32,000 nucleotides of DNA from Bellilinea caldifistulae (GCF_001306055.1 NZ_LGHJ01000012.1:180001-212000), one strand, 5' to 3'; shown: positions 6,713 to 29,227, counted from the first letter of the stretch. Translations and numbers: made by a program. The notes: a model not told the origin generated them from the letters alone.

Positions 6713-6744
6713 TGGCAGCATCCTTTCCGCTTTTCTGGTTGTAC

Positions 6745-7191: not shown

Positions 7192-7278
7192 CAGGAAATC
7201 TCCTTTCGTCAAACACGGGTTGGGTGTCAGGGAAAATAACAAACAAAATCACAGGAAAAAACTCCAATTGGTAACTTT

Positions 7279-7438: not shown

Positions 7439-7571
7439 TTATAACAAATACCCTAAGGATCACCAGACGAATTCTTCGGAGCATATTTCATTCTTTTTTG
7501 AAAGAGCCGGGGCGGGAAAAAAGATTGCGGCTTGTTTTTGAAATGTGGCTTTAGAAATCAGGAGACTGGCA

Positions 7572-8546: not shown

Positions 8547-8584
8547 ATCCGTACAAAGATCGCACATCGAGAAAGGAGACGAGC

Positions 8585-9121
8585 ATGAAGCAACCCAAAC
8601 CCTGGTGGCAACAACCCGGTTTCCGGGTCGGCATTGCACTGGTGTTGCTGATTTTGCTTGGCGGAGCAGTCAGCGCGGTGTATCTCACCCAGATTCCACC
8701 CGAACAGCCAATCGCCTTCCCGCACAATCGGCACGTCGGATTGGGTGCGCCCTGCGCCTACTGTCACCCCGGCACCGCCTGGGGACCCAACGCCGGCCTG
8801 CCGGGTATTGACAAATGCTGGGGCTGCCACCAGCAAGTCCAGAAAAAGTCACCCGAACTGGAAAAACTGGCTGCCTACGTGGCAAACAACCAGCCAATTC
8901 CATGGGTGCCGGTTGCCATTCAACCGGAATTCGTCCACTTCAATCATCAGCCGCATGTCAGCGCCGGAATTGCCTGTGAGACCTGTCACGGGGATATGAC
9001 CAAAATGACCGTTGCCGAGCCGCAGCCGCGTCAGAACATGGGCTGGTGCCTTTCCTGTCATCAAAAGATGGCCCCGGAACAGTGGACCAAACTTTCCGAC
9101 TGCGCAACCTGCCATTATTGA
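8585..9121 (+). CDS. actA: ACIII subunit ActA, pentahaem cytochrome c
   Basis: ATG 8585 after GAAAGGAG. One TM helix. Five CxxCH motifs (CAYCH, CWGCH, CETCH, CLSCH, CATCH). Position upstream of a MopB/FeS/NrfD trio. Confidence 0.85.
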   Translation: MKQPKPWWQQPGFRVGIALVLLILLGGAVSAVYLTQIPPEQPIAFPHNRHVGLGAPCAYCHPGTAWGPNAGLPGIDKCWGCHQQVQKKSPELEKLAAYVANNQPIPWVPVAIQPEFVHFNHQPHVSAGIACETCHGDMTKMTVAEPQPRQNMGWCLSCHQKMAPEQWTKLSDCATCHY

Positions 9122-9140
9122 TTTGGAGCGAGGAAACAGC

Positions 9141-11294
9141 ATGAGCAATACCCTATCACGAAGAGATTTCCTGAAACTGAGCGGGCTGGGGGCGGCTGTT
9201 TCGGCAGTGCTGACCGGCTGCGGGCCAATGGCGCGCTACATCGTCCGCAAGCCATACACCAGCATGCCCGAATACAACCAGACCGGGCTGAGTACCTACT
9301 ACGCTTCCACCTGCCGTGAATGCCCGGCCGGATGCGGCATCATCGTTCGCACCAAGGAAGGCCGGGCGATCACCATCGAGGGCAATCCGCAACACCCCGT
9401 CAACCGCGGGCGGCTCTGCTCGCGCGGGGTAACCGCCCAGCAAGGTCTTTACAACCCCGACCGCATCCGCGGCCCGGTTTTTCAGGCACGCGGAGATGCC
9501 GGCCGTGCCAAAGCAATTACCTGGGACGAAGCCTTGAATGTCGTCCAGCAAGCCCTTGCCAGCTCACCTGACCAGATCGCCTTCCTGCTGGGGGCAGCCC
9601 CCGATCACCTGTTCGATCTGGTCAGCGAAATGACCGCCACGCTGGGCGCCCCTGCCCCCGTGCGTTACAACGCTTTGACCACCTTTGAGGGACGCACAAC
9701 CCTGCTCGAAGCAGCCCGGCTAACTTTTGGCGAGGAAACCCTGCCTTACTTCGACCTTGCCAACGCCGATGTGACTTTCGCCTTTGGCGCAAACTTCCTG
9801 GAAAACTGGCTTTCACCGGTGGCTTACACGCGCGCCTACGGCGAATTCCGTCAAGGACGCCCGACCCGGCGCGGTTATCTGGTCGTCTTTGAAGCCCGCC
9901 AGTCCCTCACCGCCGGCAATGCGGATGAGTGGATACCCATCCGGCCCGGCAGCGAGGCGATTCTGGCGGCTGTATTCAACCGGCTGGTGGCCGAAGCGCG
10001 CGGCAAGCCGGTTTCACCGGCTTTCAGCACGGTGACGGTCAGCGCCGCTGCAGCCGCCAGCGGAGTCAGCGAAGAGAAAATCCGCCAGCTGGCGCAACTC
10101 TTCGCCGCTGCCAGTCATCCACTCGCCATCCCCGGCGGCAGCGCCCTGGCTCAGGCTGACGGGTTGATGACGGCCCGCTCCTTGCTTTACCTGAACGCCG
10201 TGGTGGAAAACCTCGGCCAGCCCGGCGGCGTCTTCCTGACCCCGGCACAAGTCGCCGCCACCGATTTTGCAGCGGTCAAAGAGCTGGTGCGACGGATGAC
10301 CGACAGCAAAGTCAAGGTACTCTTCATTCACGGGGTCAACCCCCTGTTTGAACTGCCCGGTGCGCTGGGCTTTGGCGAGGCCCTCGCCAAAGTGCCACTG
10401 GTGATCTCCTTTGCTTCTTTCCCGGATGAAACCGCCCTGGCCAGCGATTACATCCTGCCCGACCATACGCCCCTGGAGTCGTTTGGCTACCAACGGGTGT
10501 TGGCGGGCAGCGACCGCCCGGCCTACTCCTCCTTCCAGCCGGTGGTGGTGCCGCTGTACGATACCCGCGCAACCGCCGATGTTCTGCTGGCAGCCGTCAA
10601 ACAACTGGGAATGGCAGCCGCACAGGCTTTCCCGTACAAAGACGAGGTGGAATACATCCAGCAAAAACTGCTCCCGCTGATTGAAGCGGGTGGATTTTAC
10701 ACCGCGCCGGAGATTTTCACCTTCTGGTCACGCTGGCTGCAATACGGCGGCTGGTGGAAGCCGCAAGCCGAGCTTTCTGCGCCACGGCAAGCCGTCCCAC
10801 CGGAAGAAGCCTTCCCCTTCACCCCGCCGGTGGAGTTAGAAGAAGGCAAGCAATTTTATCTGATCACTTTCCCCAATCACTTCGGGGATGGCAGTGGGGC
10901 GAATCGCCCATGGCTGCAAGAACTGCCCGATTGGATGACCACCGTCACCTGGAATTCGTGGGTTGAAATTCACCCCAAGACGGCCGAAGAACTCGGCCTG
11001 CACGATGATGATGTGGTGCGCATCAGCACCCCCTTCGGATTTGTGGAAGCCAGCGTCTATCGCTATCCCGCCATCCGGCCGGATACAATTGCCATACCCT
11101 TTGGGCAAGGGCACACTGCCCTGGGACGCTGGGCAGAAGGCCGCGGCTGCAATCCGGCTCAGGTACTGCCCACCACCACCAACGCCGCCGGTGACCTGAC
11201 TTTTGGCAGTGTTGTGGCCACCATCCTGCCGACCGGCAAACGCCGCCCGCTTGCTCGTGTGGAGAGCAAAGAAGGCATTTACGGCGAACATTAA
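9141..11294 (+). CDS. actB: ACIII subunit ActB, molybdopterin-oxidoreductase-like part (B1), Tat-exported
   Basis: ATG 9141 after GGAGCGAGGA. Twin-arginine signal SRRDFLKLSGLGAA. MopB-like N-terminal CX2CX3CX27C motif (9312-9419). Large MopB-type body. Confidence 0.85.
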   Translation: MSNTLSRRDFLKLSGLGAAVSAVLTGCGPMARYIVRKPYTSMPEYNQTGLSTYYASTCRECPAGCGIIVRTKEGRAITIEGNPQHPVNRGRLCSRGVTAQQGLYNPDRIRGPVFQARGDAGRAKAITWDEALNVVQQALASSPDQIAFLLGAAPDHLFDLVSEMTATLGAPAPVRYNALTTFEGRTTLLEAARLTFGEETLPYFDLANADVTFAFGANFLENWLSPVAYTRAYGEFRQGRPTRRGYLVVFEARQSLTAGNADEWIPIRPGSEAILAAVFNRLVAEARGKPVSPAFSTVTVSAAAAASGVSEEKIRQLAQLFAAASHPLAIPGGSALAQADGLMTARSLLYLNAVVENLGQPGGVFLTPAQVAATDFAAVKELVRRMTDSKVKVLFIHGVNPLFELPGALGFGEALAKVPLVISFASFPDETALASDYILPDHTPLESFGYQRVLAGSDRPAYSSFQPVVVPLYDTRATADVLLAAVKQLGMAAAQAFPYKDEVEYIQQKLLPLIEAGGFYTAPEIFTFWSRWLQYGGWWKPQAELSAPRQAVPPEEAFPFTPPVELEEGKQFYLITFPNHFGDGSGANRPWLQELPDWMTTVTWNSWVEIHPKTAEELGLHDDDVVRISTPFGFVEASVYRYPAIRPDTIAIPFGQGHTALGRWAEGRGCNPAQVLPTTTNAAGDLTFGSVVATILPTGKRRPLARVESKEGIYGEH

Positions 11295-11327
11295 TGTTAG
11301 CGATGAAATAACCAAGGAGAGAGACTC

Positions 11328-12044
11328 ATGGCTGAACAAAAAGCACCTCAAAAATGGGGACTGGTGGTTGATCTCGACCGTTGTACGGGCTGCAATGCCT
11401 GCATCGCCGCCTGCTCGATGGAAAATAACATCCCCTTCGTCGGTGAGGACGAAGTGGCTTACGGACGCGGGTTGTACTGGCTCTACAACAAACGGGAATG
11501 GCGCGGCGAATATCCCGAAATCAAGCCGGCCTTTGAACCGGTCATGTGCCAGCAGTGCGGCAACGCCCCCTGTGAACCGGTCTGCCCGGTCTTCGCCTCG
11601 GTGCATAGCGAGGAAGAGCAAATCAATCTGGCCGTCTACAACCGCTGCGTTGGCACCCGTTACTGCGCCAATAACTGCCCCTATCACGCCCGTCAGTTCA
11701 ACTACTTCGATTACGAGCTGCCCGAACCGATGAATTCCTACCTCAACCCGGATGTGACCGTTCGGCGCCGTGGCGTGATGGAAAAATGCACCTTCTGCGT
11801 CCAGCGAATTGTGCGCGGACGACAGAAAGCCGCTGCCGAGGGACGGGAAGTGGAAGACGGCGAGATTCAACCCGCCTGCGTTCAGGCCTGCCCGGCCGGT
11901 GCGCTGGTGTTTGGGGATGTGAGCAATCCCGAAAGCAAAGCCAGTCAGATGGCGCGCAATCAGCGCCGCTATCAACTGCTGGAAGAATTGGGCACGCTAC
12001 CCCGGGTAACCTATCTCAAAGGAGGAGGACGCTATGGCGGCTGA
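11328..12044 (+). CDS. actB: ACIII subunit ActB, iron-sulfur part (B2; PsrB/NrfC-like ferredoxin), encoded as a separate gene
   Basis: AAGGAGAG RBS. Cys clusters CTGCNACIAAC, CQQCGNAPCEPVCP, CVGTRYCANNCP, CTFC...CVQACP. Confidence 0.85.
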   Translation: MAEQKAPQKWGLVVDLDRCTGCNACIAACSMENNIPFVGEDEVAYGRGLYWLYNKREWRGEYPEIKPAFEPVMCQQCGNAPCEPVCPVFASVHSEEEQINLAVYNRCVGTRYCANNCPYHARQFNYFDYELPEPMNSYLNPDVTVRRRGVMEKCTFCVQRIVRGRQKAAAEGREVEDGEIQPACVQACPAGALVFGDVSNPESKASQMARNQRRYQLLEELGTLPRVTYLKGGGRYGG

Positions 12045-13476
12045 GACCAATTTGCTGCAAGCCGTAAAGCCAGCCGAACACGCGGAAGAAGACCCCCGCG
12101 AACATTTGATGTTCGACCCGCGCCCGCGCGAGGAAATGAACCGCATGGTCATGGAGGCGATGACCACCACCACCCGCCGCTACTGGATCTGGCTGATCGC
12201 CCTTGGGCTGGGTGTGGCGGTCTTGTTGTTTGGCGCCTGGGGCAACATGATTTTGACCGGCATCGGGGTTGCCGGTGTCCGCCGCCCCATCTTTTGGGGT
12301 GTGTTCATCGTCACCTTTGTCTTCTGGATCGGCATCAGCCATGCCGGAACGTTTGTGTCGGCCATCCTGCGAGTCTTCAAGGCTGAATTCCGCCGCCCCT
12401 TCACCCGGGCAGCCGAGTTGATGACCACCTTCGGGCTGGCAGCCGGTGCGCTTTACCCCCTAATCCATCTTGGGCGGGTGTGGGTGTTCTACTGGATGAT
12501 TCCCTATCCCAACGCTCGCTGGTTGTGGCCAAACTTCCGTTCCCCCCTGGTGTGGGACTTTCTCGCCATCACCACGTACCTGCTTTCCAGCACCATTTAC
12601 CTCTACCTGCCGCTGGTTCCCGACCTGGCCATGGCGCGTGACCGTACCAAAGGTTGGCGTCATACGATTTATAAGCTGCTGGCTCTGGGCTGGCGCGGCA
12701 CCGAGGCCGAGTGGTACCGCCTGCGTAAAGCCATCAACATCTTTGCCTTTGCCATCATCCCGGTCATGTTCTCGGTGCACACCATCGTTTCGTGGGACTT
12801 TGCGGTAGGCATGGTGGCCGGCTGGCATTCGACCATCTTCGGCCCGTATTTCATCGTTGGCGCAATCCTTTCGGGTGTAGCAGCCGTGGTGACCATTCTG
12901 TTTGTCCTGCGCAACACCATGAAACACTTCGACTACTTCATCCGCGTCGAGCATTTTGATGCGCTGGGTAAACTGCTGCTGGTCTTTTCAATGGCATGGG
13001 CTTACTTCTTCTTCAACGAGTACCTGCTTTCGTGGTACGGTGGCGATGCTGCCGTCAAACAGGTGCTGACCCTGCACGCTACCGGCCCGGCGGCGTGGGT
13101 CTGGTACACCATGCTGATCTGCAATGTCGCCATCCCCTGGCTGACGCTGTGGAATAAGACCATCCGCCGCACACCCTGGGCGATGTTCATCATCACCCTG
13201 CTGATCAATGTGGGCATGTACGCCGAACGCTACACCATCATCCCCCTCACCCTCGGCCATCAACGCAGCCCGTTTGATTGGGGTGTGTATAACCCACAGT
13301 GGACCGAAATCAGCATTGCGTTAGGCACATTGTGTTTGTTCATGTTCCTGTATCTGGCTGCCTCACGCCTCATCCCGCTGGTGCCGGTCTGGGAAGTACA
13401 GGAAGGTCAAATGGCGCACACTCTCCGCAAAGTCGGCAAAGCCGAGGTACCCTCGGTGACCGAACTGGAAGAGTAA
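12034..13476 (+). CDS. actC: ACIII subunit ActC, NrfD/PsrC-like polytopic quinol-interacting membrane subunit
   Basis: ATG 12034 after AGGAGGAGGA, overlapping the actB2 stop by 11 nt. 480 aa with many hydrophobic helices, NrfD-like. Confidence 0.85.
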   Translation: MAAETNLLQAVKPAEHAEEDPREHLMFDPRPREEMNRMVMEAMTTTTRRYWIWLIALGLGVAVLLFGAWGNMILTGIGVAGVRRPIFWGVFIVTFVFWIGISHAGTFVSAILRVFKAEFRRPFTRAAELMTTFGLAAGALYPLIHLGRVWVFYWMIPYPNARWLWPNFRSPLVWDFLAITTYLLSSTIYLYLPLVPDLAMARDRTKGWRHTIYKLLALGWRGTEAEWYRLRKAINIFAFAIIPVMFSVHTIVSWDFAVGMVAGWHSTIFGPYFIVGAILSGVAAVVTILFVLRNTMKHFDYFIRVEHFDALGKLLLVFSMAWAYFFFNEYLLSWYGGDAAVKQVLTLHATGPAAWVWYTMLICNVAIPWLTLWNKTIRRTPWAMFIITLLINVGMYAERYTIIPLTLGHQRSPFDWGVYNPQWTEISIALGTLCLFMFLYLAASRLIPLVPVWEVQEGQMAHTLRKVGKAEVPSVTELEE

Positions 13477-13491
13477 TCAAGGAGCAAACGT

Positions 13492-14028
13492 ATGGCTGCA
13501 AAAGTCGTTCATCTGGCACTTTTCAAAGAAGAACAAATTGATCACGCCGCCGAAGCCATCTCCCGCCTGCACGAACTGGGCATCAGCGATCGCGATATTT
13601 CGGTCATCTCCGGCATCCCATACTCCGAGCGCATCCTCGGAAGGCCAATGTCATGGACGAACATCGGCCGGATTGGGCTGGCTGGGGCAGTACTGGGCTT
13701 TCTGGTGGCAACGTTTTTGAACTTTGGTACTCCCTTGCTGTATCCCATTCGCGTGGCCGCCATGGGACTGACTCCCATCCCAACCTCGATTGTGGTTACC
13801 TTTGAACTGACCATGCTGGGTCTGTTGATCAGCACCTTCATCGGCGTATTCGTGGAAACCATCTCACCGTCGTTTGGGCCGAAAGGCTACCACCCCAAGA
13901 TCAGTGACGGACACATCGGCATCCTGTTCAGCGGCCCGGCTCAACTGGATGAAAAAATTCACACCGCCCTCAGCGAATTGGGCGCCGAAGTGGTACATGA
14001 GGTAGAGGAGGAGAAGTTATGGCCGTAG
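13492..14028 (+). CDS. actD: ACIII subunit ActD (DUF3341-like)
   Basis: AAGGAG RBS. N-terminal soluble segment VHLALFKEEQIDHAAEAISRLHELG followed by two TM helices. Conserved position after actC. Confidence 0.75.
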   Translation: MAAKVVHLALFKEEQIDHAAEAISRLHELGISDRDISVISGIPYSERILGRPMSWTNIGRIGLAGAVLGFLVATFLNFGTPLLYPIRVAAMGLTPIPTSIVVTFELTMLGLLISTFIGVFVETISPSFGPKGYHPKISDGHIGILFSGPAQLDEKIHTALSELGAEVVHEVEEEKLWP

Positions 14029-14546
14029 CCAAACGTTTGATCCTTGTTCTGGTGGTGCTGGCCAGCCCGTTGCTGATCGGCTTGCTTTTCACCTACGACA
14101 TCATCAAAATCGAGTGGATTTCCTTCATGGAAATTCAGCCCTCTTACCGTTCGATGGAAGCACCCCTGCCGCTGCCGCCTCGCTCAGTGCCGGTACAGGG
14201 AGCGGCTTACATCCCCGAACTGGGCGCACCGGCAAACCCCGTTCCGGCAACCGAGGAGTCGATTCAGCGCGGCAAGGAGTACTATGACAATGCCTGCGCT
14301 CTCTGCCACGGGGCAACCGGCAACGGCGGCGGGGCTTTCTCCGGTTTTCTGGTGCAGTACCCGCCCGCCAACCTGGTCAAGCCCGACGCCAACGCCCGTC
14401 AAATCAGCGATGGGGCAATTTTCCTGACCATCACCAACGGCATTGAAGGGCGTATGCCGGCGCTGATCGAAAACCTCCCAACCCCCGAAATGCGCTGGGA
14501 CGTGGTCAACTATGTGCGCCACCTGCAGCAACAGGCCACCCCCTGA
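14019..14546 (+). CDS. actE: ACIII subunit ActE, membrane-anchored monohaem cytochrome c
   Basis: ATG 14019 after GAGGAGGAG, overlapping the actD stop. N-terminal TM helix. Single CALCHG motif with distal Met region (GRMPAL). Confidence 0.8.
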   Translation: MAVAKRLILVLVVLASPLLIGLLFTYDIIKIEWISFMEIQPSYRSMEAPLPLPPRSVPVQGAAYIPELGAPANPVPATEESIQRGKEYYDNACALCHGATGNGGGAFSGFLVQYPPANLVKPDANARQISDGAIFLTITNGIEGRMPALIENLPTPEMRWDVVNYVRHLQQQATP

Positions 14547-14723: not shown

Positions 14724-14757
14724 ATCGCCTTCCGATTTCGGTAAAGGCGATTTTTTT
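14724..14757 (+). promoter_or_regulatory. Intrinsic-terminator-like hairpin plus U-tract inside the csp leader (candidate attenuator/thermosensor)
   Basis: ATCGCCTT (14724-14731) pairs perfectly with AAGGCGAT (14744-14751). Inner CCGA/TCGG pairing. Followed by T7 (14751-14757), 55 nt before the csp ATG. Confidence 0.55.
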
Positions 14758-14811
14758 ATGACCCGATCGAAAAATCATCAAATCTTTTTAGTAACAAATG
14801 GAGTATCTCAA

Positions 14812-15021
14812 ATGTCTGATCGTGTAGTTGGTAATGTCAAGTGGTTCAATAGTGAAAAGGGCTACGGTTTTATTTCTCAGGAAAACGGCCCGGATGTCTT
14901 CGTCCATCACACTGCCATTCAGGCGGAAGGCTTCCGCACATTGAACGAAGGGCAAAAAGTTGAATTTTCCATCGAAAAGGGTCCCAAAGGCTTGCAGGCT
15001 GCCCGCTTGACCATTCTGTAA
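14812..15021 (+). CDS. csp: Cold-shock protein (CspA family, 69 aa)
   Basis: ATG 14812 with GGAG 8 nt upstream. RNP1/RNP2 motifs KGYGFI and VFVHH. The ORF-track extension to 14629 is not credible. Confidence 0.95.
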
Positions 15022-15040
15022 AATTCTCAACTCAAAAGCC

Positions 15041-15074
15041 AAAACACCCCTGTTCCAAACAGGGGTGTTTTTTA
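15041..15074 (+). terminator. Rho-independent terminator after csp
   Basis: ACACCCCTGT (15044-15053), loop TCCAA, ACAGGGGTGT (15059-15068), followed by TTTTT. Confidence 0.85.
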
Positions 15075-15129: not shown

Positions 15130-15219
<90 letters not shown>

Positions 15220-15292: not shown

Positions 15293-15369
15293 GGGCGGTT
15301 AGCTCAGTTGGTTAGAGCGTTGCGTTGACATCGCAGAGGTCGTAGGTTCGAGTCCTATACCGCCCACCA
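15293..15369 (+). tRNA. tRNA-Val (anticodon GAC), CCA encoded
   Basis: Manual fold. Acceptor GGGCGGT/ACCGCCC. D arm GCTC-AGTTGGTTA-GAGC. Anticodon stem TTGCG/CGCAG with loop TTGACAT. T arm GTAGG-TTCGAGT-CCTAT. Discriminator A then CCA. Confidence 0.92.
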
Positions 15370-15374: not shown

Positions 15375-15401
15375 AAAAAGCCGCGTTGAAGCGGCTTTTT
15401 T
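15375..15401. terminator. Bidirectional rho-independent terminator (after tRNA-Val on + and after the island operon on -)
   Basis: AAAAA-GCCGC-GTTGAA-GCGGC-TTTTTT, with A- and T-tracts on both sides. Confidence 0.8.
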
Positions 15402-15528
15402 CTTGGAATTGTGCGCTAATGTCCCCGTCAGCGGAATTGAAACGCTCCGACTTGAAGAAATTGACGAAAAATGATGGGGGACTTTTCCTTGATCTACCCA
15501 AACACCTCACCAATCCACCGCAGAGCCT

Positions 15529-16245
15529 CTAACACTCCAAAAAATTTACCTCGCTCTTATATTTTATACTTGTAATCGTTCCATCATGGAGGTTAATCAC
15601 ACAATCAGATTCTTCAGCAACACGCAAATCATGAGTGACGAGCAAGACGGATAGCGCTTTATCTTCTACCAGCGTGCGAAACAACTTAACAATTTCCATA
15701 CCCGTCTTTGAATCCAGGTTTCCCGTAGGTTCATCGGCCAAGAGAAGGGACGGTTCATGGATCAAAGCGCGTGCAATAACCACCCGTTGCTGTTCACCCC
15801 CCGATAACTCAGCCGGTAAATGATTGATCCGATTTCCAAGTCCTACCCATTCAATCAGGTGCATTGCCTTTTCTTTCAAGTTAAAACCCAATGAATGTTG
15901 ATAAGGCAGCAAGGGCAGCATCACATTTTCAATCACGGTCAGTACAGGCAAGAGGTGATAGAGTTGAAATACAAAACCGATATTCTTTCGGCGGAATGCC
16001 GTTATTTGATCTTCCGAAAGATTGGAATAGTTTACATCACCAACGATAATATGCCCTGATGTAGGTTTATCTATCCCCGCAATCAGGTTCAGCAAAGTGG
16101 TTTTTCCACTACCCGATGGTCCAATGATTGTGGTGAGTTGAGTTTTCTTTACTTCCAGGTCTAAATTATGTAGGGCTGTGACTTTATTAAAGCCGGTATC
16201 ATACACCTTGGATACGCCAGAACAAATCACGATTGAATTTTTCAT
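15529..16245 (-). CDS. ABC transporter ATP-binding protein, MacB/LolD/FtsE-type
   Basis: Walker [10 protein letters not shown], signature LSGGEQQR, Walker [10 protein letters not shown]-loop VTHD. The start overlaps the permease stop (ATGA). Confidence 0.95.
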
Positions 16246-19200
16246 TTCATTTCATCCATCAGGTTTTGAAGCGCAACATAGGAAAAAGAGGTAAATTGGG
16301 AAAGTTTGTCCATTTCAATCGTGGAAATATCATCAAAAAGCGAGCCGATAAATTCATTGCCTGCCCCACAAAGACCAACAGATGGTAAATTCGCTGAAAG
16401 TAAGATAGATAACGATAGTGGACAGGTGTAATTCGTTGATTTGATAGAAACGCCGAATGATTCGCCTGTTTTTAAGATTGAATTCCGTAATATCTCAGGA
16501 CTTTCACTAAGGCCCATCTTCTTTTCCAACAATCCATTTAGCCAATCCATTAAGTTTGGATCATCCAGATTGATGCTCATCATCCAATTTTCTCTTACCC
16601 TTGCAATATCTATTTCCTGATTATTGATATCCGATGAACTCAAGTCATTGTCCACAGCGATATATTGCCAGTTACCCGTCTGTGAAATATCTATTACCCC
16701 CACAACACTTGGAATTTCTGTTAAATGATTCTGAATATATGCTATCAGCCCACTATATTGGCTGGCCAGTCCCGGCAACCAGATAAAACGAAGCGTATAA
16801 GGCGTTCCGGATTCAGCAAATTGTCGAGCCAGCTCCAATAGCGTAACCGTCCCTGTAAGGCTTAAATCTGCCGCAGGAGTACCTTCTCTGGCATCGTAAT
16901 GAGTGGTGACCCAAATTTCTTTTTCCGGATATACGCTACCCCGAATGGTTGCTCCCAAAACCTTTGCTTGATAAAACTTTATTTCAACATTTTTCTCCAT
17001 AACTTGTTTTACATCTGAAGAAATTCCTGCAGGGTCTTGAAGCGCAACACCCACAATACCCATGGGAAGAGCACATTTTTTTTCAAGCAGCTCCACCACG
17101 GGATGAATGAAATGGACAGGCTCACGGCTATGACCAGCCAGCATTAACCATCTTTGATCCAAGGAATCACAGACCTCTATCACTTGGTCAATTGGGCTAT
17201 AAATTAACGGTGTTCTTTGGTTCAGAAGATTTGAAGCAAGCTTAAAGTGGGTCGCAGAAGTTACCAGCGACATTGGATTCCCTTCATTGCGATAAGGCAG
17301 TAATTGAAACACAAGATTTTGCTGTTGATCAAAGATATCTGCGGTTTGGTAAGGGACCCACTCTTCATAAACATTCACCCCCATTAAGGATAATTTTTGA
17401 AGCAATATCCGGACAATGATCTCGTTTCGGTCATTCAAGGAAGAAGCGGATTCCATTACCCCATTCAATTCTTTCATAACTTCATTGATTTGATTTTCGT
17501 CTATTGTCAGGTCTCCATTACCTTTGGTGGAAAGCGGAGTTTGCACTGTCGGCAAAGAAGTGATGCGGATAAGATTTCCAGCCAGATAATTAACAAGACC
17601 AATGAAAAGTAAAAGCAGTAACAGAATTTGCCCAAACTTGAAACGATGTGTAGATGAGCGTACGCCCGGAAGATGAAGATACGCCAACGATTTTGAAGTG
17701 CCAACCCAACAAGCGATTAAGATCAGCGCCAAGGCAACTCCAAGGATAGAGAGGTTTAATCCTAGAAAATTTGCAGGGATACCTTTCCAAAATGAAACCG
17801 CTATCATGCCCAATAAAACACCCATAACACCAAAAATCCCCCCCCGCATGAAACTTTCATAAAAGACCATTCTAAAGAGTTGTTTCTTATCCCAACCTAT
17901 GTACACCAAAGTTCTGAATTCAGTTTCTCTTTGTGCCACATTCAGCACAACATTTTGGACGAGAATCAATATCCCTATTAGCAATGAACAAGCGGTCAGG
18001 AGTAAATAATAGGGCGAAAGACTGATCATTAAGTGTTTCCCAAGCAAATTTAGATTCACATCTCCTTTATTAACAGACCAGATATAAATCATTGATACAA
18101 AGGTGAAAGTAATTAAGCCAATAGAAATTCCATTGACGAGATACCGTCTCGGCCGTCGTCTTATTTGATAAAGAACCAATTTACTAAATGTAAAATCAGT
18201 AGAGCAATTTCTTCTTTTTATTGAAGTTTCGCCAAAATGTAGAAGGTGGTAGCTTCTCTTTCTCACCTCATTCATGAACAACGGGAGACTGGACACGATA
18301 GAAACCCCTCCGACAACGCTACCGATGGTCACAATTTCACGAATAGAAATATTCAGATCCAACAAAATGGAGAGAAAAAGGATTAAAACCGTAAGCGGGA
18401 CAATCCCCCAAACGGTGATCCATGAAATATACTTTACCAGCCTTCGAAGAATATAACGATTCTCCCATCCTAGCGCCTTCAACAAACCAATTTCAGGCAG
18501 TGTAGAGAGAACAAATAAATTAGTATTTGTAATAATCAACAAAATAGAGCCGATTAACAAAAGAAGCAATAGAATTAGGTTTATTAAGTTAACACCGCTC
18601 TCAATATATTGGGTAGATCCCAAGGAAGTCCAATTTTCTTCAACGTACCCTATCCCCGGAACATATAAAAGAATTTTTTGGGGAGATGCACCAGCCACAA
18701 TGTCAACATGAAGACCGGTTTTTTCTTGAATTTCGGTGGCAATTCTTTCAATTTTATGAACATTTTCGGATGAATACCCCGATATATCGCGTATTCGCAC
18801 TCTGATCGCATCAATATAGTCAGGCCGTCCCACCAAGTACTGAGCAGCCTCAAGGGTTGTTAAACCTAATGGTGGTCGGGGATTAAAACTACCCGGATTC
18901 AAGCCCGGAGAAAGCAACTTAGGTTCTAGAATGGAACCGTTTTCGTCATATACCAGTACTTCTTGCGGCGGTTCATAAATTCCGAGGGGAACGTAAGATA
19001 GCGGGTCTAATCGCTGGATAATTGACCCAATATTATATACGCCTTTTACATCAGGAATAAATGGCAGCGGCTTAATTGCTTCCAATGAGCGAAAAACAGT
19101 TTGCTCACCATTAAGTAACGGCAAGTTCTTCAAAAATTGGGGGTCAAATTTTGATCTCGCTTCTGCATCCAATTCATTCCGAACAATTTCCTCCCAATTA

Positions 19201-20318
19201 CCATATGGTTTGATACTAAAGTGAGATGGAAAATCTTCCGAACCTTCATGAAATTCATACTTAAAAATGCCGGGACGAAGAATTATATTTGAGTCAAGAG
19301 GTATATAACCTCCTTCTGCCTCCAATCGGGGTGGTTTATTGGTTGAAAAAACTACAGACTGAAGGACAAGCGGACGGAGGGCGCTTGATAAATCATATCT
19401 TTGACGAATTAATACTTCCCCCTTTTGGTCCAATTCCACCATTTTTTCACGCAATACTTCATTCGACTCATCCTCCTTTAACTTCTCGACATCCTCAGAT
19501 TGGATAGGCAGCTTTCGTAATAATATTTCAACACCCAAGTTGATAAAACTTTGACGATTGACCAACAGGGGTATTTTTACTGCCTTTTGTTTAACCCCAT
19601 CTAAACCTACTTTAAGCTCTTCGTTTTGGAGATAGTCCCCCTCTTCAATCGCCTCGTCTAATCCGATTAACTTGGCTTCGGCTTCGGGATCAATCCCTGC
19701 CACCAGTATCCATTGAGGAGGCAAAGAACCAATATTAAGAGAAGCCCAATCTCCTACCATCCCGGCACCGCTAAAAGACAGATCGCCTTTCAAAAAATCA
19801 TTAAATAGAAAATTATCATCGCTTTCAGCAAAATAAGCGCTGGGCGTTGGAAATTCCTGGACGACAGCCTCATCGCCATACCATCCTATTTTCATTTCAT
19901 ATAAATTATTAGGTAGATAGGGCTCAATTCTGACCGCGATGCTCCCCAAATTATTCATCATAAACCCAACCACCGAAATCGGAGCAGCGACTTCCACATC
20001 CGGCATGCTTTTTATCCACTCATATTGTTCTTCCGTGATTCCACCTTGTGATGCTCCAAGGTAATTTCCTTCTACTATGCCATGTTCTTTTTCTACCTGA
20101 GTGATTGCCGTTTGAGGCCGGAGAAGTAAATCATACGCTCCACGCCAATGTTGGGAAAGTTGTGCGGTCGTTTTTATTTCGATTGTGTGAAGGATGATTA
20201 CGAAAACCAATAGACCAACATATAAAATCCCCAGACCAATGATTGTAATCGGAATCTGACTTTCCAAACCCCTTATCAGTTTGATTTGGATTTTTTTGAC
20301 TTTGGCAGAAATATTCAT
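16242..20318 (-). CDS. Giant (about 1358 aa) FtsX/MacB-type ABC permease: TM1, ~530-aa extracytoplasmic domain, FtsX module 1, TM5, short loop, FtsX module 2, TM9, and a ~440-aa C-terminal extracytoplasmic PA/M28-like domain
   Basis: Uninterrupted ORF 16242..20333. ATG at 20318 preferred: GGGGAG 7 nt upstream and a TAATG overlap with the upstream small ORF. FtsX-like helices (e.g. LLKALGWENRYILRRL, FRTLVYIGWDKKQLFRMV). C-terminal motifs WVTTHYDA, PAADLSLTGTVTLLELARQF and VVGVIDIS resemble M28 aminopeptidases. Confidence 0.85.
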   Translation of the reverse strand: MNISAKVKKIQIKLIRGLESQIPITIIGLGILYVGLLVFVIILHTIEIKTTAQLSQHWRGAYDLLLRPQTAITQVEKEHGIVEGNYLGASQGGITEEQYEWIKSMPDVEVAAPISVVGFMMNNLGSIAVRIEPYLPNNLYEMKIGWYGDEAVVQEFPTPSAYFAESDDNFLFNDFLKGDLSFSGAGMVGDWASLNIGSLPPQWILVAGIDPEAEAKLIGLDEAIEEGDYLQNEELKVGLDGVKQKAVKIPLLVNRQSFINLGVEILLRKLPIQSEDVEKLKEDESNEVLREKMVELDQKGEVLIRQRYDLSSALRPLVLQSVVFSTNKPPRLEAEGGYIPLDSNIILRPGIFKYEFHEGSEDFPSHFSIKPYGNWEEIVRNELDAEARSKFDPQFLKNLPLLNGEQTVFRSLEAIKPLPFIPDVKGVYNIGSIIQRLDPLSYVPLGIYEPPQEVLVYDENGSILEPKLLSPGLNPGSFNPRPPLGLTTLEAAQYLVGRPDYIDAIRVRIRDISGYSSENVHKIERIATEIQEKTGLHVDIVAGASPQKILLYVPGIGYVEENWTSLGSTQYIESGVNLINLILLLLLLIGSILLIITNTNLFVLSTLPEIGLLKALGWENRYILRRLVKYISWITVWGIVPLTVLILFLSILLDLNISIREIVTIGSVVGGVSIVSSLPLFMNEVRKRSYHLLHFGETSIKRRNCSTDFTFSKLVLYQIRRRPRRYLVNGISIGLITFTFVSMIYIWSVNKGDVNLNLLGKHLMISLSPYYLLLTACSLLIGILILVQNVVLNVAQRETEFRTLVYIGWDKKQLFRMVFYESFMRGGIFGVMGVLLGMIAVSFWKGIPANFLGLNLSILGVALALILIACWVGTSKSLAYLHLPGVRSSTHRFKFGQILLLLLLFIGLVNYLAGNLIRITSLPTVQTPLSTKGNGDLTIDENQINEVMKELNGVMESASSLNDRNEIIVRILLQKLSLMGVNVYEEWVPYQTADIFDQQQNLVFQLLPYRNEGNPMSLVTSATHFKLASNLLNQRTPLIYSPIDQVIEVCDSLDQRWLMLAGHSREPVHFIHPVVELLEKKCALPMGIVGVALQDPAGISSDVKQVMEKNVEIKFYQAKVLGATIRGSVYPEKEIWVTTHYDAREGTPAADLSLTGTVTLLELARQFAESGTPYTLRFIWLPGLASQYSGLIAYIQNHLTEIPSVVGVIDISQTGNWQYIAVDNDLSSSDINNQEIDIARVRENWMMSINLDDPNLMDWLNGLLEKKMGLSESPEILRNSILKTGESFGVSIKSTNYTCPLSLSILLSANLPSVGLCGAGNEFIGSLFDDISTIEMDKLSQFTSFSYVALQNLMDEMK

Positions 20319-20560
20319 TAAGAATCTCCCCAATTAACCTGAATACAATAACTACTTCCTTCACCCTCGATATAGACATTCCACACTGCTCTGTATTGCG
20401 GAGAAAAAACGGTTTGGGCAGATGGCGATACAGATATCTCTGCTGGTATATAATTCGGCTGAGGGGGTGTTTGCGGGTATCCTAATACATTTGTACTGCC
20501 AATAGCAAGAAACATCATCAATCCTACGAAGAAAATGACAAGTGACTTCTTGAACGTCAT
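20318..20560 (-). CDS. Small secreted protein (80 aa; signal peptide plus ~53-aa mature part), first gene of the island operon
   Basis: ATG 20560 with GGAG 5 nt upstream. Signal peptide MTFKKSLVIFFVGLMMFLAIGSTNVLG. The stop TAA overlaps the permease ATG. Low-GC codon usage like its neighbours. Confidence 0.65.
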   Translation of the reverse strand: MTFKKSLVIFFVGLMMFLAIGSTNVLGYPQTPPQPNYIPAEISVSPSAQTVFSPQYRAVWNVYIEGEGSSYCIQVNWGDS

Positions 20561-20604
20561 TTTTTCTCCGTTTCCAAAAAAGTTCAGAGATGCTCCTGAA
20601 AAAA

Positions 20605-20632
20605 ATTATAATAAAAAACTTACTTCTGTCAA
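20605..20632 (-). promoter_or_regulatory. Consensus sigma70 promoter of the island operon (TTGACA-16-TATAAT)
   Basis: Minus strand: TTGACA (20627-20632), 16-nt spacer, TATAAT (20605-20610), about 45 nt upstream of the small-ORF ATG. Confidence 0.75.
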
Positions 20633-20798
20633 TAATCAGAACCAATTTCTAACCGTAAAGATGGATATTTTTACTTACCTTCTAAACCCCAATGAAAATC
20701 ACAGGACTTTGATGGTTAAGAATTGTTTAGAAAATTAAGATTTGCCCGTTTTTTAGACTTGTTTTTCAAAGAAGGGGCTAATAAGTTATACTTTTGTT

Positions 20799-22004
20799 TT
20801 ACTGCAAAAAATTCAGCGGATCCACCTTGCCGTACACATCGCTGCGCATTTCAAAGTGGAGGTGCGGGCCGGTCGAACGACCGGTGGAACCCATCAAACC
20901 GATCAGATCGCCCTGATAGACACTCTGTCCGCAGACCACATTGATCTGGGAGAGATGGGCGTAGTAAGTCTGCCACCCGTTGCCGTGATCAATCACAATC
21001 AGGTTGCCGTAGCCAAAGTCGTTCCAGCCGGCATAGACAATCACGCCGTTATCGGATGCGTAAATGCCCACACCGGTCGAACCGCCAATATCAATGCCGA
21101 AGTGGTTAATTTCCGGCTGATAGCGGTAACCGGAGATGTAGCGCGTGGCCGCCGGCCAGACGAATGTACTGGTACCCACCGCCCCGTCATACACCGTACC
21201 GCAGTAACCCGGACCAACCGTTTTGGCAACCGCCGGATTATCACGTGTAATACGCGGCATGTTCCAGGTGATGAATTGGCCTTCGCCGCCGGGGATAAAC
21301 AAAACCGTGCCGGGTTGGATATTGGGAGCAGCAAAATCACCCACACTCTCCAGCGTCAGGTTGTTACTGGGCCAGTTGATGATGTCCTCGGGAGTCACTT
21401 TGAAGAAGCGCGAGACAGCATTCAAACCATCCCCCGCATGCCACTCATAAACCGCCCCGTCGGTTGGCGGAATTTTGATCACCTGTCCGGGGGTGATCCA
21501 GTGCGGGTCACCCAGTTCTTTGGGATTGGTCCACATCAGCGATTGGGGCTTGAGGCCAAAACGCTCGGCAATGGTAAACAGGGTATCGCCGGGTTGAATT
21601 TCGTATTCCACAAAATCGAAACGCGGGCGGCTTGGCAGGGTGGTATGCAGCAATGCCAGCCGGAAAATACCATGCACCATGTTGTTTGCGGCCGGGTCAA
21701 AGCGAGGCGGTTCAATGGTCGGGGTAGCCGTGGGCAACGAAGCAGCAACTGCCGCAGTTTGAGGTGTTGCCACCTGACCTTTGAGGTAGAAGTTGCTCAT
21801 CACCCAAACCACCATCAGCACCAGCGCCAGCGAAGCCAAACCGCTACCAATCCGCATGGCGGCCTCTCCCAGCCCCATTTCCACCACGGTTTGCCATAAA
21901 TCGCCTATCCCGCCGGCTTTGAGTGACGGACTGACTGGATCGCTCTGTTTGGTTGAGTCAAGATCGGCACGGAACGGATCGTTCGGTGGCGATGTTTCGG
22001 TCAT
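20799..22004 (-). CDS. Membrane-anchored LysM-domain M23 (LytM-type) peptidoglycan endopeptidase
   Basis: TM anchor LASLALVLMVVWVM. LysM motif YEIQPGDTLFTIAERFGL...GQVIKIP. M23 motifs HFGIDIG and GSTGRSTGPHLHFEMR. Confidence 0.92.
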   Translation of the reverse strand: MTETSPPNDPFRADLDSTKQSDPVSPSLKAGGIGDLWQTVVEMGLGEAAMRIGSGLASLALVLMVVWVMSNFYLKGQVATPQTAAVAASLPTATPTIEPPRFDPAANNMVHGIFRLALLHTTLPSRPRFDFVEYEIQPGDTLFTIAERFGLKPQSLMWTNPKELGDPHWITPGQVIKIPPTDGAVYEWHAGDGLNAVSRFFKVTPEDIINWPSNNLTLESVGDFAAPNIQPGTVLFIPGGEGQFITWNMPRITRDNPAVAKTVGPGYCGTVYDGAVGTSTFVWPAATRYISGYRYQPEINHFGIDIGGSTGVGIYASDNGVIVYAGWNDFGYGNLIVIDHGNGWQTYYAHLSQINVVCGQSVYQGDLIGLMGSTGRSTGPHLHFEMRSDVYGKVDPLNFLQ

Positions 22005-25084: not shown

Positions 25085-28000
25085 TTAATGCCGTCGGCGT
25101 TTCTTCTTGCGAGCCGAACGGGAGGCTTCGTCCTTGCGTTCGACTGCTCCGGCCACCACATTTTCGGGCCTGGCTGCCGTCTCCACGCTGCTGCGGTCGC
25201 GTTCAACCTGCACCGTTGCACTGCGGCTGGGCTGGTAGGTGAACATCCGCGCCACCACGCCGCCGCGAATATCCTTGAGCAATTGCGAGAATAACTCCGT
25301 TGCCCGGCTCTTGTACTGCACCAGCGGATCACGCTGAGCATAGGCTTCCAGCCCAATTGAAACACGCAGGGCATCCACCCGTGTCAGGTAATCCACCCAC
25401 AATTGGGAGATCACCCCCAGCAGAATTTCGCGGTAGATTTGATTTTGTAAGCGCTCGCCCAACACACGCGCAATTTCCTGCAAGTCTTCGGCAGGCAATT
25501 CTTTCAAGTCACTTTCGGCAATTTCTTCAAAGCGTTCGTTGCCCAGCACGGCACGCAGGCGTTCCTGCAAGGGTTGACTCAGACGCGAAAGCGGCGTTTC
25601 GGTCTGAATCAGACGGCGCAATTCATAATTGCCCCACACCCGTTGCAATGCCAGCCGCGCGCCTTCGAGATGTTCCAGAATCTCCTCGCTGAGTTCCTCC
25701 GCATCACGGCCTTCCAGCAAACCAGCTGCCAAAAAGATGTAGGTCATGCGGATGACTTGCTGCCGTCCCCGCCGATGCGTGCGGCGGTCGAACGTCAGGC
25801 GAGTGCCTTGCGTCATGATCCCCAGCAGCCCCAGCAAAGCTGCCTGATTTTGCGCAAGCAGGATTTTCCCGTCCCCCACCCGTTCGAGGGCGGCATCCAG
25901 ATCCCGGGCGATCGGACCATCCGGGCTGGAAAGCCGTTCAACCCGCTCGTTGAGCAATCGTTCAACCTCACCGTACAACATCCGGGCTGCCTCGTCCCAG
26001 TCGCTGCCCATGTACTGAGCCGGACGGGCATCCAGTTCCTCAATGCGCCGTTGAATCGCCCCAATCACCCGGTTTAGCGTTACCGACATCAGCGCAGCCT
26101 CAACCTGCTCCTTTACCCGCTCGGCCAGATGATCGCCCCCCTGCGCCAGGGCGCGCATCTCTTCACTGCTCAAACGCAGCGGTACGCGCACCAGCCCGGA
26201 GAGTTCTTCCACCAGTTCCTGCGGGCGCAAACTGCCGCCGGACTCCTCCAGCCGGTCCGGCAATCCTTCAAAAAAGGTGTCCACAGTTTCCAGCCGCTCG
26301 GCCAGTTGCTGCTGGATAGCCTCTTCGCTGCGCTCCAGCAAACTTTCAATCGCCCGCAGCAGATGATTGCGCTCGGCTTCCAGCGCCCGGCGGGCTAACT
26401 CCAACAGCGCCCTCCGCAGTTGATCGGCGGTGATGGCTTCCTCGCCAAATTGCTCCTCAATTTCGTCCATCATCAGGCGTAAGGTGTAGGAGGGATAGGC
26501 CACCCCCTCAAAAGTGATTGGCGGCTGAATGTCTTCCAGATACGCCAGCAATTTCCACGGCCCTTCTTCATCGGTCAAAGCCGTTTCAACCCGGTTTTTC
26601 AGTTCGTTTTGCAGCATTTCGCGGACATCCTCGCTCAGGTCTTCTTTGGTAAAGACCCGGTCACGCTGCTCGTAGATGCGCTTGCGCTGCATGTTCAGCA
26701 CATCATCGTACTCAAGCAGGTGCTTGCGGATGTCGAAGTTATTGCCTTCCACCCGCGCCTGGGATTGCTCCACCAGTTTGGCAACCAGATTATTCTCAAT
26801 CGGCAGACTTTCGTCAATATTCAACCGCGCCATCAGGTTTTCCACCTGCGCGCCGCCAAACAGACGCATCAGGTCATCCTCCATGGAGAGATAAAAGCGG
26901 GAAGAACCGGGGTCACCCTGACGGGCAGCCCGTCCGCGCAACTGATTGTCTATCCGGCGGGCTTCGTGGCGTTCCGAGCCAATCACATGCAGACCGCCCA
27001 GTTCCCGCACCTTTTCCATCTCATCCATGTACTGCAAAAAGGCACGCACCGATTCTTCATAAATCCCGTAATCGGCCGGATTCATTTCCAAAAGCAGTTT
27101 TCGGCGCTGCTCGTTGGTCATCTCGTAGGGGTCGTCGCCGGCGCTTCTCAACACCCGGTTGACATCCGCCAGAATATCCTCGTCGAGTTCACCGCCCAGT
27201 TTGATATCCACACCGCGCCCCGCCATGTTGGTGGCAATCGTAACCGCACCGAAGGCGCCGGCGCGCGCAATAATCAGAGACTCTTCATCGTGTTTGCGGG
27301 CATTCAAAACCTGATGCGGCACACCGCCCTGCAACACCCTGACCAGTCGCGGACGGTCTTCTTCTCTCAAATTGAGCAAATTCAGTAACCGCTCCACATT
27401 TTCCGGGTCTTCCGGGTTGATGGAGGTCATCCCGACCGAGCGGGCAAAATTGCGCAATTCGGCGGTGTTCAGGTCGGGCAACGGTTTGTACAAAAACTGC
27501 AATTCGGGAATGGCGGTCTCACTTTCCTGCCGGTTGTGCTTGCGCAGCCAGGCATCTCGAATCAACATCACCTGCATTAAACGACGCAGCAATTCGGGCT
27601 GCAGGCGCAGCGAAAGCCGCTCCGAATGCTCCACCGATGTGGTACCCACCAATTGCGGCCGGCCGCGCACATGGTAGTGGATGATTTCCTGCACAATGGC
27701 ACGGATTTTCGCCTCTTCGGTGCGATAAATCACATCCGGGTAGTCTTTGCGTTTCCAGAACACTGGCGCTTTGAGCGGGTCATCCCGCCGGGCGTAATAG
27801 GTGTATTTATAGCCGTATTCGTCCTTGCCTTGCACTTCCACCAGTGTCGGGTTGGGTTGTATCGCCTTATATTCCAGATTGGTGGGAATGGGCAGCACTT
27901 CCAGTTTGTAAATTTTGGCGAATTCTTCCGCCTCGGTCAGCGCCGTTCCGGTCATACCGGCCAGTTTTTCGTACATGCGGAAGTAATTTTGAATGGTGAT

Positions 28001-29206: not shown

Positions 29207-29227
29207 AAACAATCACCTCTCTGCGGG

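Follow-up and report, generated by a model that had tools for sequence, protein, structure and literature searches.

The islet and its genes

We analysed a 32,000-nucleotide stretch of the Bellilinea caldifistulae genome (GCF_001306055.1, NZ_LGHJ01000012.1:180001-212000), hereafter the window, i.e., this whole stretch at its full length. Within it, an islet of 5399 bp lies between a tRNA-Val gene and a gene for a LysM and M23 peptidase. The islet carries a single minus-strand transcription unit that encodes a small secreted protein, here truncated, a very large permease with two FtsX-type modules and an aminopeptidase-like domain, and an ATP-binding cassette (ABC) ATPase. Composition, comparison with relatives in which the site is empty, and discordant divergence of islet and flanks show that the islet was almost certainly acquired laterally, and its two larger genes very probably encode a type VII ABC machine with a non-catalytic M28 domain. 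Taken as one statement, i.e., a foreign islet, this machine and a layer of function that we infer, the account is one that we hold with moderate confidence. The features on which it rests are as follows, with window coordinates and the evidence in brackets.

15130..15219, plus strand: tRNA-Ser(GGA), core flank (ARAGORN, Rfam)
15293..15369, plus strand: tRNA-Val(GAC), core flank, uninterrupted and unduplicated (ARAGORN, Rfam)
15375..15401, no strand: bidirectional hairpin terminator, AAAAAGCCGC-loop-GCGGCTTTTTT (sequence, junction comparison)
15401..20799, no strand: inserted islet, 5399 bp (empty-site alignments, composition)
15529..16245, minus strand: ABC ATPase of the LolD/MacB/FtsE type, 238 amino acids (Pfam ABC_tran, 8e-35)
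16242..20318, minus strand: fused double-FtsX permease, type VII/MacB-like, 1358 amino acids (Pfam FtsX PF02687, 1.7e-11, two stretches)
16245..17570, minus strand: C-terminal extracytoplasmic PA and M28 aminopeptidase-like domain of the permease, residues 917-1358 (family profile)
18588..20162, minus strand: extracytoplasmic domain of the permease between transmembrane segments 1 and 2 (TM1 and TM2), residues 53-577, 525 amino acids (AlphaFold2 model)
20318..20560, minus strand: truncated gene for a small Sec-secreted PKD-like protein, 79 codons, with signal peptide (open reading frame, alignments)
20319..20320, no strand: junction of a 359-bp deletion (blastn breakpoints, three-way alignment)
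20605..20632, minus strand: sigma-70-type promoter, TTGACA-16-TATAAT, 5' of the small gene (12/12 match)
20799..22004, minus strand: core LysM and M23 peptidase gene, the other flank (Pfam)

The islet departs sharply from its surroundings in composition. Its guanine-plus-cytosine (GC) content is 0.406, compared to 0.564 in the remaining window, where stretches of 5.4 kb all fall within 0.546-0.597; in a sliding-window profile, GC drops from ~0.55-0.62 to 0.38-0.45 over positions 15500-21000. Composition-normalised tetranucleotide deviation reached z = 8.2 relative to other stretches, and GC at third codon positions (GC3) was 0.37-0.42 in the three islet reading frames, compared to 0.63-0.76 in flanking genes other than the cold-shock gene, which has 0.54. 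These breaks are sharp rather than flat and agree with a preliminary description of the sequence, which had placed an abrupt switch of composition at the tRNA-Val terminator and the M23 stop codon; its interval of 15402-20798 lies within one base of the borders that we obtained, and its contrast of about 37% GC inside versus 57% outside holds, although the inner figure was slightly low.

The borders were set by alignment to four relatives with an empty site, L010 and L012-L014 (L-numbers denote loci retrieved from other assemblies, most of them metagenome assemblies). Alignments break at window positions 15400/15401 and 20800/20799. The borders are base-exact, since just 13-34 bp separate the M23 stop codon from the tRNA-Val terminator in these relatives; tRNA-Val there directly adjoins the M23 gene, the synteny expected if the islet is an insertion. 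The hairpin terminator is also found at the empty sites, and because the islet abuts it, it can also end the minus-strand ABC operon. No Rfam family was found inside the islet.

A position beside tRNA-Ser and tRNA-Val, foreign composition, and presence/absence polymorphism are also what a tRNA-targeting genomic island would leave if an integrase had inserted it and since been lost. We consider such an origin highly improbable. The insert lies outside tRNA-Val and past its terminator, not in the tRNA 3' end; the islet does adjoin the tRNA genes, as previously described, but they are not its integration target. Within the window, we found no integrase or transposase reading frame and no second tRNA-Val 3' end, allowing up to 3 mismatches, in line with the absences noted earlier. 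The islet has no convincing terminal direct or inverted repeats (of one 28-nucleotide inverted pair, one arm lies beyond the islet, inside the tRNA spacer), there is no direct repeat of a tRNA end, and no target-site duplication is seen at the junctions relative to the empty sites. Furthermore, three genes fill the 5.4 kb, none of the islet alleles described below contains an integrase remnant, and in one of them (L097) an identity tract crosses the border into the M23 gene. That site-specific integration was not the vehicle is mostly shown by these findings.

Transcription of the unit is predicted to start from the strong TTGACA-16-TATAAT promoter, which matches at 12 of 12 positions (20632..20605) and is the sole perfect one, as the preliminary description had noted; the total of 14 promoter-like sites represents no excess over the 13.8 expected by chance. 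The equivalent promoter in L001 reads TTGACA-16-TAGAAT. The intact small gene has 130 codons in L001, L011, L097, and L100 and is followed by a spacer of ~210 bp, which is ~290 bp in L097 and split by IS66 in L011. Compared to L001, L094, and L097, the window has lost 359 bp, i.e., the last 51 codons of the small gene together with the ~210-bp spacer. This deletion put a TAA stop codon over the permease ATG, such that the permease now lies directly behind the promoter-proximal stub. Because the deletion created it, the TAATG overlap between the two genes is a strain-specific scar rather than design, and the stoichiometric co-expression earlier read from it no longer follows. The ATGA overlap between permease and ATPase genes is real: it measures 4 nucleotides in L001-L006, L008/9, L090, L091, and L093 and 1 nucleotide in L007, whereas a 28-bp gap without overlap separates the two genes in L092. 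The ATPase is predicted to be translationally coupled to the permease through this overlap. Of the three genes first described as a complete unit, the permease and ATPase genes therefore stand, whereas the small gene is a 79-codon remnant of a 130-codon gene.

Transfer history of the islet

We used the flanking M23/LysM protein as query, with one genome per species, to retrieve 80 Anaerolineaceae loci, the nearest of which belong to Bellilinea metagenome-assembled genomes. L011 (Bellilinea sp. H69_726) has the gene order of the window, flanks of 84-86.5% nucleotide identity, and an islet; L010 (MAG175) has flanks of 84.5% identity and no islet, and neither do L012, L013, and L014, with flanks of ~76% identity. 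The empty L010 thus equals an islet-bearing lineage in its closeness to the window, with L012-L014 more distant. Identity of the tRNA-Ser(GGA) gene to that of the window is complete (100%) in L001, L010, and L011 and reaches 98.9% in L012. The closest relatives of the permease occupy the same site (L001-L004, L005/L006), and the genes are found there in several related lineages (L001-L005, L011, L094, L097-L100). Some relatives therefore carry the block in this place and others lack it, so that the finding which the preliminary description had named as refuting an acquired block, its presence there in all relatives, was not obtained.

Divergence of the islet does not follow that of the chromosome around it. 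Using our own implementation of the Nei-Gojobori method, we compared the window with L001: synonymous divergence (dS) was 0.58-0.71 across eight flanking genes (86-89% nucleotide identity), compared to 0.04-0.07 across the three islet genes (96.6-98.3% identity). Identity in 100-bp bins jumps at the islet borders, and the flank segments that touch the islet are no more similar to L001 than to the empty L010. In L097, which came from a metagenome scan, the islet is 99.3% identical to that of the window and the flank past window position 21000 ~86% identical. Across positions 20800-20993, L097 has 1 mismatch, compared to 19 for L001 and 17 for L010, and it returns to baseline divergence from ~20994; the identity tract thus reaches ~195 bp into the 3' end of the M23 gene. 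Because this near-identity crosses the islet border into M23, it marks a homologous-recombination crossover in the flank. The acquisition mechanism, which the preliminary description had left unclear, can now be narrowed to this process: the islet probably spreads by homologous recombination, in which it would be swapped between lineages as a unit through its conserved flanks, i.e., the tRNA genes at one border and the 3' end of the M23 gene at the other.

A series of alleles occupies the site, and their history is uncoupled from that of the chromosome. L094 represents the window's own lineage (99.5% identity in the flank, 99.9% in the islet), and further alleles occur at 92% identity (L098, L100). 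The L011 allele is about twice as distant from the window (Jukes-Cantor distance 0.33) as its flanks are (0.15-0.18); flank distances place the lineages in an unresolved trichotomy, ((window, L001), L011, L010). Window positions 17300-17600, which encode the ninth helix of the permease and the linker to its PA-M28 domain (residues 907-1007), are only 87-90% identical to L001, compared to ~97% in the rest of the islet; this may be a mosaic or diversifying segment.

Occupation of one site by the same genes in L001-L005, L011, L094, and L097-L100, together with the age of the L011 allele (dS ~1), might also be explained by a block ancestral in Bellilinea that was inherited vertically with an odd composition and lost in some lineages. 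This explanation is already contradicted, and we give it next to no credence. The dS between window and L001 is tenfold lower in the islet than in the flanks, and the L097 islet is 99.3% identical against ~86% in its flank. The spacers at empty sites are as short as in outgroups, so that loss would need repeated base-precise excision, and GC3 in both old alleles is still ~0.25-0.3 below that of the host. The normal dS between the window and the L011 allele also speaks against a locally low mutation rate as the cause of the low dS. Empty sites, the discordance between islet and flank divergence, and composition instead uphold the previously suggested horizontal acquisition of an accessory cassette, which we regard as almost certain. 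At base resolution, the locus cleanly documents the movement of a cassette without an integrase between species of Bellilinea (Chloroflexota), combining empty sites, several alleles at one site, a breakpoint in the flank, and islet divergence 10-fold younger than that of the flanks.

The window otherwise holds, in order, genes for SecA, S1, M19, a 164-residue protein, and M23, then the islet, tRNA-Val, tRNA-Ser, the cold-shock gene, and alternative complex III. The SecA reading frame (25085-29212, minus strand) encodes 1375 residues, compared to 1373 in relatives, and is unusually long relative to typical bacterial SecA. Rfam RF01766, a cspA-type thermoregulator RNA, exceeds its gathering score with 82 bits at 14730-15072 on the plus strand, a span that covers the 5' untranslated region and the cold-shock-domain gene by the tRNAs. 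A complete alternative complex III-like operon (~7545-14546, plus strand), comprising cytochromes c, a molybdopterin subunit, Fer4, NrfD, ActD, and a further cytochrome c, is kept in all Bellilinea relatives. A tandem pair of CBS-domain genes lies at 6278-7242 on the minus strand; the two share ~70% DNA identity and cross-match in every blastn comparison.

The transporter and the small secreted protein

The ATPase has intact motifs throughout: Walker A GPSGSGKT (residue 42), signature LSGGEQQR (147), Walker B LLLADEPT (167), and an H-loop VTHD (203). Its top NCBIfam matches are LolD, DevA, FtsE, and MacB, of which LolD scores best (238.6 bits), with all of them under the equivalog cutoffs. The permease family profile matches the membrane domains of MacB, LolE, LolC, YtrF, and YbbP in the PDB. 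From hydropathy and the positive-inside rule, we predict nine transmembrane segments in the permease, with the N-terminus inside and residues 53-577 and 917-1358 outside. The first outer domain was modelled with good confidence (AlphaFold2 predicted local distance difference test (pLDDT) 83.6; predicted template-modelling score 0.85). It matches no Pfam family, and MacB_PCD was not detected in it; its best PDB folds are the periplasmic domains of LolE, MacB, and YknZ (probability 0.85-0.99, weak E-values of ~0.01-0.15, and template-modelling (TM) scores of ~0.5 on the target). Matches to these Porter/Sabre folds span the model with ~300 residues of insertions.

The C-terminal outer domain resembles PA-M28 aminopeptidases. 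Profile positions 923-1245 match 2ek8 (E = 1.9e-21) and YwaD, 6hc6 (E = 4e-20), although the window permease alone reaches 19.9-22 bits with Pfam M28, i.e., around the cutoff of 21.3. None of the 24 full-length homologues keeps the general-base glutamate of the GAEE motif, which has given way to T, Q, L, N, or D (L-A in the window); the second glutamate is mostly lost, and the equivalent of His256 is Y or L. Of the ligands, the equivalents of H97, D117, and D179 mostly persist, and those in the window (H1140, D1151, D1210) are kept. Because the general-base glutamate and the His256 equivalent are lost, the domain is probably a non-catalytic, ligand-binding aminopeptidase fold. Compared to L001, the window permease also has a 24-nucleotide in-frame deletion at ~16593-16598 (residue 1241/1242), which removes 8 residues including a GQ motif kept in at least 90% of family members. 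This deletion is probably shared with L094, whose permease is called at 1358 residues and runs off the locus.

The small protein has a type I signal peptide without a lipobox, a conserved and Pro-rich mature N-terminus (PPQPNYIPAEISVSP...), and an invariant W...GD motif (W60, G78, D79); Bellilinea-type alleles contain four cysteines. No Pfam family (including PKD models at the gathering score), NCBIfam family (E up to 10), or PADLOC family matched it. An exhaustive profile search retrieved ~60 stand-alone proteins of 110-175 residues and also matched giant multi-repeat proteins, with E-values down to 2e-48 and 5-31 stretches in each, that Pfam assigns to PKD/PKD_4. Since the profile reaches these PKD-repeat proteins, the small protein appears to be a divergent single PKD-like domain. 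Its model is an eight-strand beta-sandwich (pLDDT 68.6) with no specific neighbour in the PDB; the best fold matches, with E of 2e-3 or worse and TM scores of ~0.4, are generic beta-sandwiches.

Linkage of the small gene to the permease is close to universal. Of the dereplicated loci, 23 had usable sequence 5' of the permease; using a family hidden Markov model, we found the small gene there, at 80-430 bp, in 21, as an intact copy in 18 and a disrupted one in three; the L011-type allele is exceptional in its spacing, with the IS66 insertion. Between two old Bellilinea alleles, the ratio of nonsynonymous to synonymous divergence (dN/dS) is 0.027 for the mature small protein (at dS 0.96), compared to 0.20 for the permease and 0.12 for the ATPase. 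Where intact, the small protein is thus the most constrained component of the module.

The small gene has nevertheless been knocked out five times with clear lesions, and the permease and ATPase reading frames are complete in all disrupted lineages. The lesions, with two further loci in which no small gene was detected, are as follows.

Window: 359-bp deletion
L094, small gene 1430-1819: TAT to TAA at codon 71, spacer intact
L092: TGA at a conserved W/F position
L091, ~5615-5630: frameshift in a G13 run
L008/L009/L101: a C-terminal part alone left, a third to a half of the gene
L111/L112: small PKD-like gene undetectable in the ~600-bp AT-rich upstream region; permease full-length, ATPase present

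Two of these knock-outs arose independently in one population, since L094 keeps the spacer that the window has lost, whereas the window keeps TAT at codon 71 where L094 has TAA. The spacer itself is a hot spot of rearrangement: it is deleted in the window, split by IS66 in L005 and L011, and carries a promoter duplication in L097. The IS66-family transposase gene (L005 8428-9834, L011 ~5280-6790; GC 0.57, host-like), within an islet allele of 65% identity, is the sole mobility gene seen in any allele. In L097, a direct duplication of ~106 bp (3832-3937) that comprises the promoter, 5' untranslated region, and start region lies in the spacer 5' of the permease, where it has replaced the left half of the terminator-like hairpin that L001 carries at 9916-9931. 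From its sequence, this duplication would give the permease a strong promoter of its own.

The full module, i.e., small protein, permease, and ATPase, was found in Anaerolineae only, and full-length permeases with both FtsX and PA-M28 domains (1360-1390 residues, 29-37% identity) were found only in Anaerolineae/Chloroflexota assemblies. In other Anaerolineae, the homologous operons lie in unrelated genomic contexts with GC at or near that of the host, and deviate in either direction: 0.52 versus 0.59-0.62 in the flanks for L105, 0.33 versus 0.25-0.27 for L106, and 0.51 versus 0.40 for L114. These departures both ways, in unrelated contexts, suggest that the module is generally mobile. We rejected an intrinsically AT-rich family for the same two reasons, i.e., distant operons at or near host GC and deviations in both directions. 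Across L101-L116, the 600 bp 5' of the permease, which hold the small gene and promoter, have the lowest GC of the whole operon in each host that we examined, at 2-14 points under the permease (8-14 in unrelated Anaerolineae hosts). A literature search for FtsX with M28 in Anaerolineae returned nothing relevant.

More distant relatives of the permease lack the M28 domain. One in Rossellomorea aquimaris (L095 5001-9584) has a C-terminal M1 peptidase with intact HELAH and WLDEG motifs, from which it is apparently active; another, of 1075 residues, is encoded on the MOBP mobilizable Exiguobacterium plasmid pEYLC1.1 (L096) beside an IS3 element. The ATPase gene comes first in both L095 and L096. 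Plasmid matches were confined to two relatives of 25% identity on Exiguobacterium MOBP plasmids, and a tblastn search of 50,697 phage records gave no match. In L118 (96-5339), the tblastn match of the permease takes 5.2 kb for 1281 residues, which suggests an insertion or frameshift.

Given the M23 gene immediately beside the islet and the control that FtsEX systems exert over M23/LytM-type factors, the transporter could be imagined as an FtsEX-like regulator of the adjoining M23/LysM cell-wall peptidase. We find this scarcely credible: M23 belongs to the core and also stands at empty sites, where there is no islet, it is a neighbour at none of the homologous operons elsewhere, and no coiled-coil partner is encoded. 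A functional link to this peptidase was rejected on the first two grounds.

Proposed function and comparison with known systems

By analogy with MacB, LolCDE, FtsEX, and YbbAP-TesA, ATP hydrolysis inside the cell would move the outer domains mechanically; these would act on a ligand on the outer side of the membrane, with no solute pumped across. The dead aminopeptidase would bind and may recognise a free N-terminus, e.g., the Pro-rich mature N-terminus of the small protein. Small protein and transporter together would then be a secreted effector with ATP-driven self-protection, like a bacteriocin and its immunity system, and the window strain would be an immunity-only carrier. We put this effector and immunity function forward tentatively. 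It is favoured because the transporter outlives loss of the small gene and because the cassette has a patchy distribution among close relatives, between which it moves; a social function is likewise predicted because the small gene is strongly conserved yet repeatedly lost while the transporter is kept. At its most explicit, the proposal would describe a previously unrecognised Chloroflexota system, in which a diffusible, Sec-secreted and stand-alone PKD-like effector acts against kin, and the transporter catches the free N-terminus of the effector with the dead aminopeptidase and spends ATP to strip it from its envelope target; we think this version unlikely to hold in full. In that version, the cassette would spread between species by flank recombination, with immunity-only cheaters, among them the window strain, arising repeatedly. 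If confirmed, an effector and immunity function would add a new type of antagonism to the filamentous Anaerolineae, organisms dominant in many digesters and sediments.

Persistence of the transporter where the small gene is dead could instead reflect a BceAB- or MacB-like resistance machine, directed against external antimicrobial peptides or membrane-active compounds, for which the small protein is a dispensable accessory or sensor. We regard this as possible but doubtful. The spacer rearrangements would raise or uncouple transporter expression, and distant relatives carry other outward peptidase domains (the Rossellomorea M1 domain with intact HELAH) or sit on mobilizable plasmids. However, the near-universal linkage of the small gene and its dN/dS of 0.027 are left unexplained, no BceRS-type two-component system is adjacent, and the large outer domain lies between TM1 and TM2 rather than TM7 and TM8.

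Conserved gene order, a Pro-rich mature N-terminus beside an N-terminus-binding fold, and the presence of LolE among the nearest fold matches of the outer domain could also point to a LolCDE-like machine dedicated to handling or releasing its own small protein, i.e., to extracting, maturing, or anchoring a surface PKD-like protein. This too seems rather unlikely. A transporter with a sole client should decay after loss of the small gene, whereas a target of ~4.8 kb is intact in every such lineage; moreover, the signal peptide of the small protein is of the ordinary type I, without a lipobox.

Several points weigh against the account that we prefer, i.e., a mobile islet encoding a secreted effector and its self-protection. 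As to transfer, the window-L001 comparison shows no co-transfer of flanks, such that homologous recombination is directly indicated for the L097 exchange only, and a donor near 40% GC was not found among the homologues, of which the nearest outside Bellilinea are ~35% identical. The function of the module is one that we infer. No known bacteriocin or toxin matches the small protein in sequence or fold (Pfam, NCBIfam, PDB folds), and PKD-like domains are usually binding modules rather than toxins. The window permease may itself be decaying, having lost the near-invariant GQ motif. Regarding the losses, the loci were retrieved through the permease, which favours intact permeases in the sample and exaggerates how far the small gene differs from them; most of the knock-out data come from metagenome assemblies, and the L091 frameshift in its G13 run could be a sequencing error or slipped-strand phase variation.

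In its mode of transfer, the islet resembles integrase-less islets that are swapped by flanking homology, e.g., capsule and O-antigen-type loci: it is a foreign cassette between conserved core genes, with several divergent alleles per site, empty sites, and recombination breakpoints in the flanks. Unlike these loci, it is a single small transcription unit of 5.4 kb, and it occurs in Chloroflexota.

In architecture, the nearest analogue of the module is the lactococcin 972 (Lcn972) operon, whose products are a small, Sec-dependent bacteriocin with a beta-sandwich fold and, for immunity, a large membrane protein and an ABC ATPase (PMC4055356). Both consist of three genes in this order, encode a small all-beta protein with a Sec signal peptide, and are carried on transferable DNA; in contrast, the known systems lack a PA-M28 domain and the phylum differs. 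Membership of the Lcn972 family was examined and rejected. The small protein matches neither PF09683 nor TIGR01653 (E up to 10), Lcn972 is not among its fold matches, the permease has no NCBIfam match (TIGR01654), and the ATPase matches TIGR03608 (8.8e-55, 185.4 bits) below the cutoff of 254.85. Because membership was tested and not found, effector and self-protection is a claim about how the module may work rather than about the family to which it belongs.

BceAB transporters provide target protection at the outer face of the membrane rather than transport. Like them (e.g., PsdB, 9ugg), the module pairs a fused FtsX-type permease with one ATPase gene; the profile match is weak (E = 0.007). 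BceB spans the membrane with 10 helices, has its outer domain between TM7 and TM8, and works with a cognate BceRS two-component system. The permease here has nine predicted helices and an outer domain placed between TM1 and TM2, and neither the islet of the window nor those of its relatives encode a kinase or regulator. Anti-phage defence was also considered and rejected, given that PADLOC matched neither permease nor small protein and returned generic ATPase matches only.

The C-terminal 440 residues align with PA-M28 aminopeptidases (Bacillus subtilis YwaD, 6hc6, and the Aneurinibacillus enzyme, 2ek8) over a propeptide-like region, the PA domain, and the M28 core, and the H-x-D, G-A-D-x-S-G, and D179-equivalent motifs are largely kept. 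Unlike in these enzymes, the general-base glutamate is gone and the domain is tethered to a membrane transporter. The transferrin receptor and nicalin provide precedents for non-catalytic binding modules of the M28 type.

Type VII ABC systems, i.e., MacB, LolCDE, and FtsEX, pass cytoplasmic ATP hydrolysis mechanically to outer domains. The module shares with them an FtsX-type four-helix module and a separate adjacent gene for a LolD/MacB/FtsE-type ATPase. From the model, whose fold statistics are weak, the domain between TM1 and TM2 may correspond to their Porter/Sabre domain. It differs in that two FtsX modules are fused in one chain of 1358 residues, that the first has an outer domain of 525 residues and the second just a 13-residue loop, and that an extra ninth helix leads to a covalent outer PA-M28 domain; furthermore, the islet encodes no adaptor, TolC, LolA, or EnvC partner. 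The cargo of the islet is thus an uncharacterised variant of a known transporter class. In the YbbAP-TesA system of Escherichia coli, a fused double-FtsX permease and an ATPase pass membrane-extracted material to an extracytoplasmic hydrolase, TesA, which is a separate, catalytically active esterase (PMC12646458). The module likewise combines a fused double-FtsX permease, an ATPase, and an extracytoplasmic hydrolase-fold partner, although its profile match to YbbP is marginal (E = 0.033); unlike TesA, the partner here is a fused M28 homologue lacking the catalytic glutamate, and a small PKD-like protein is co-encoded. The cargo adds to a type VII theme known from FtsEX-EnvC and YbbAP-TesA, in which a machine powered by ATP presents material to a partner with a hydrolase fold outside the cytoplasm; here, that partner is covalently fused and, judging from its lost residues, catalytically dead, and a dedicated small secreted protein is encoded alongside.

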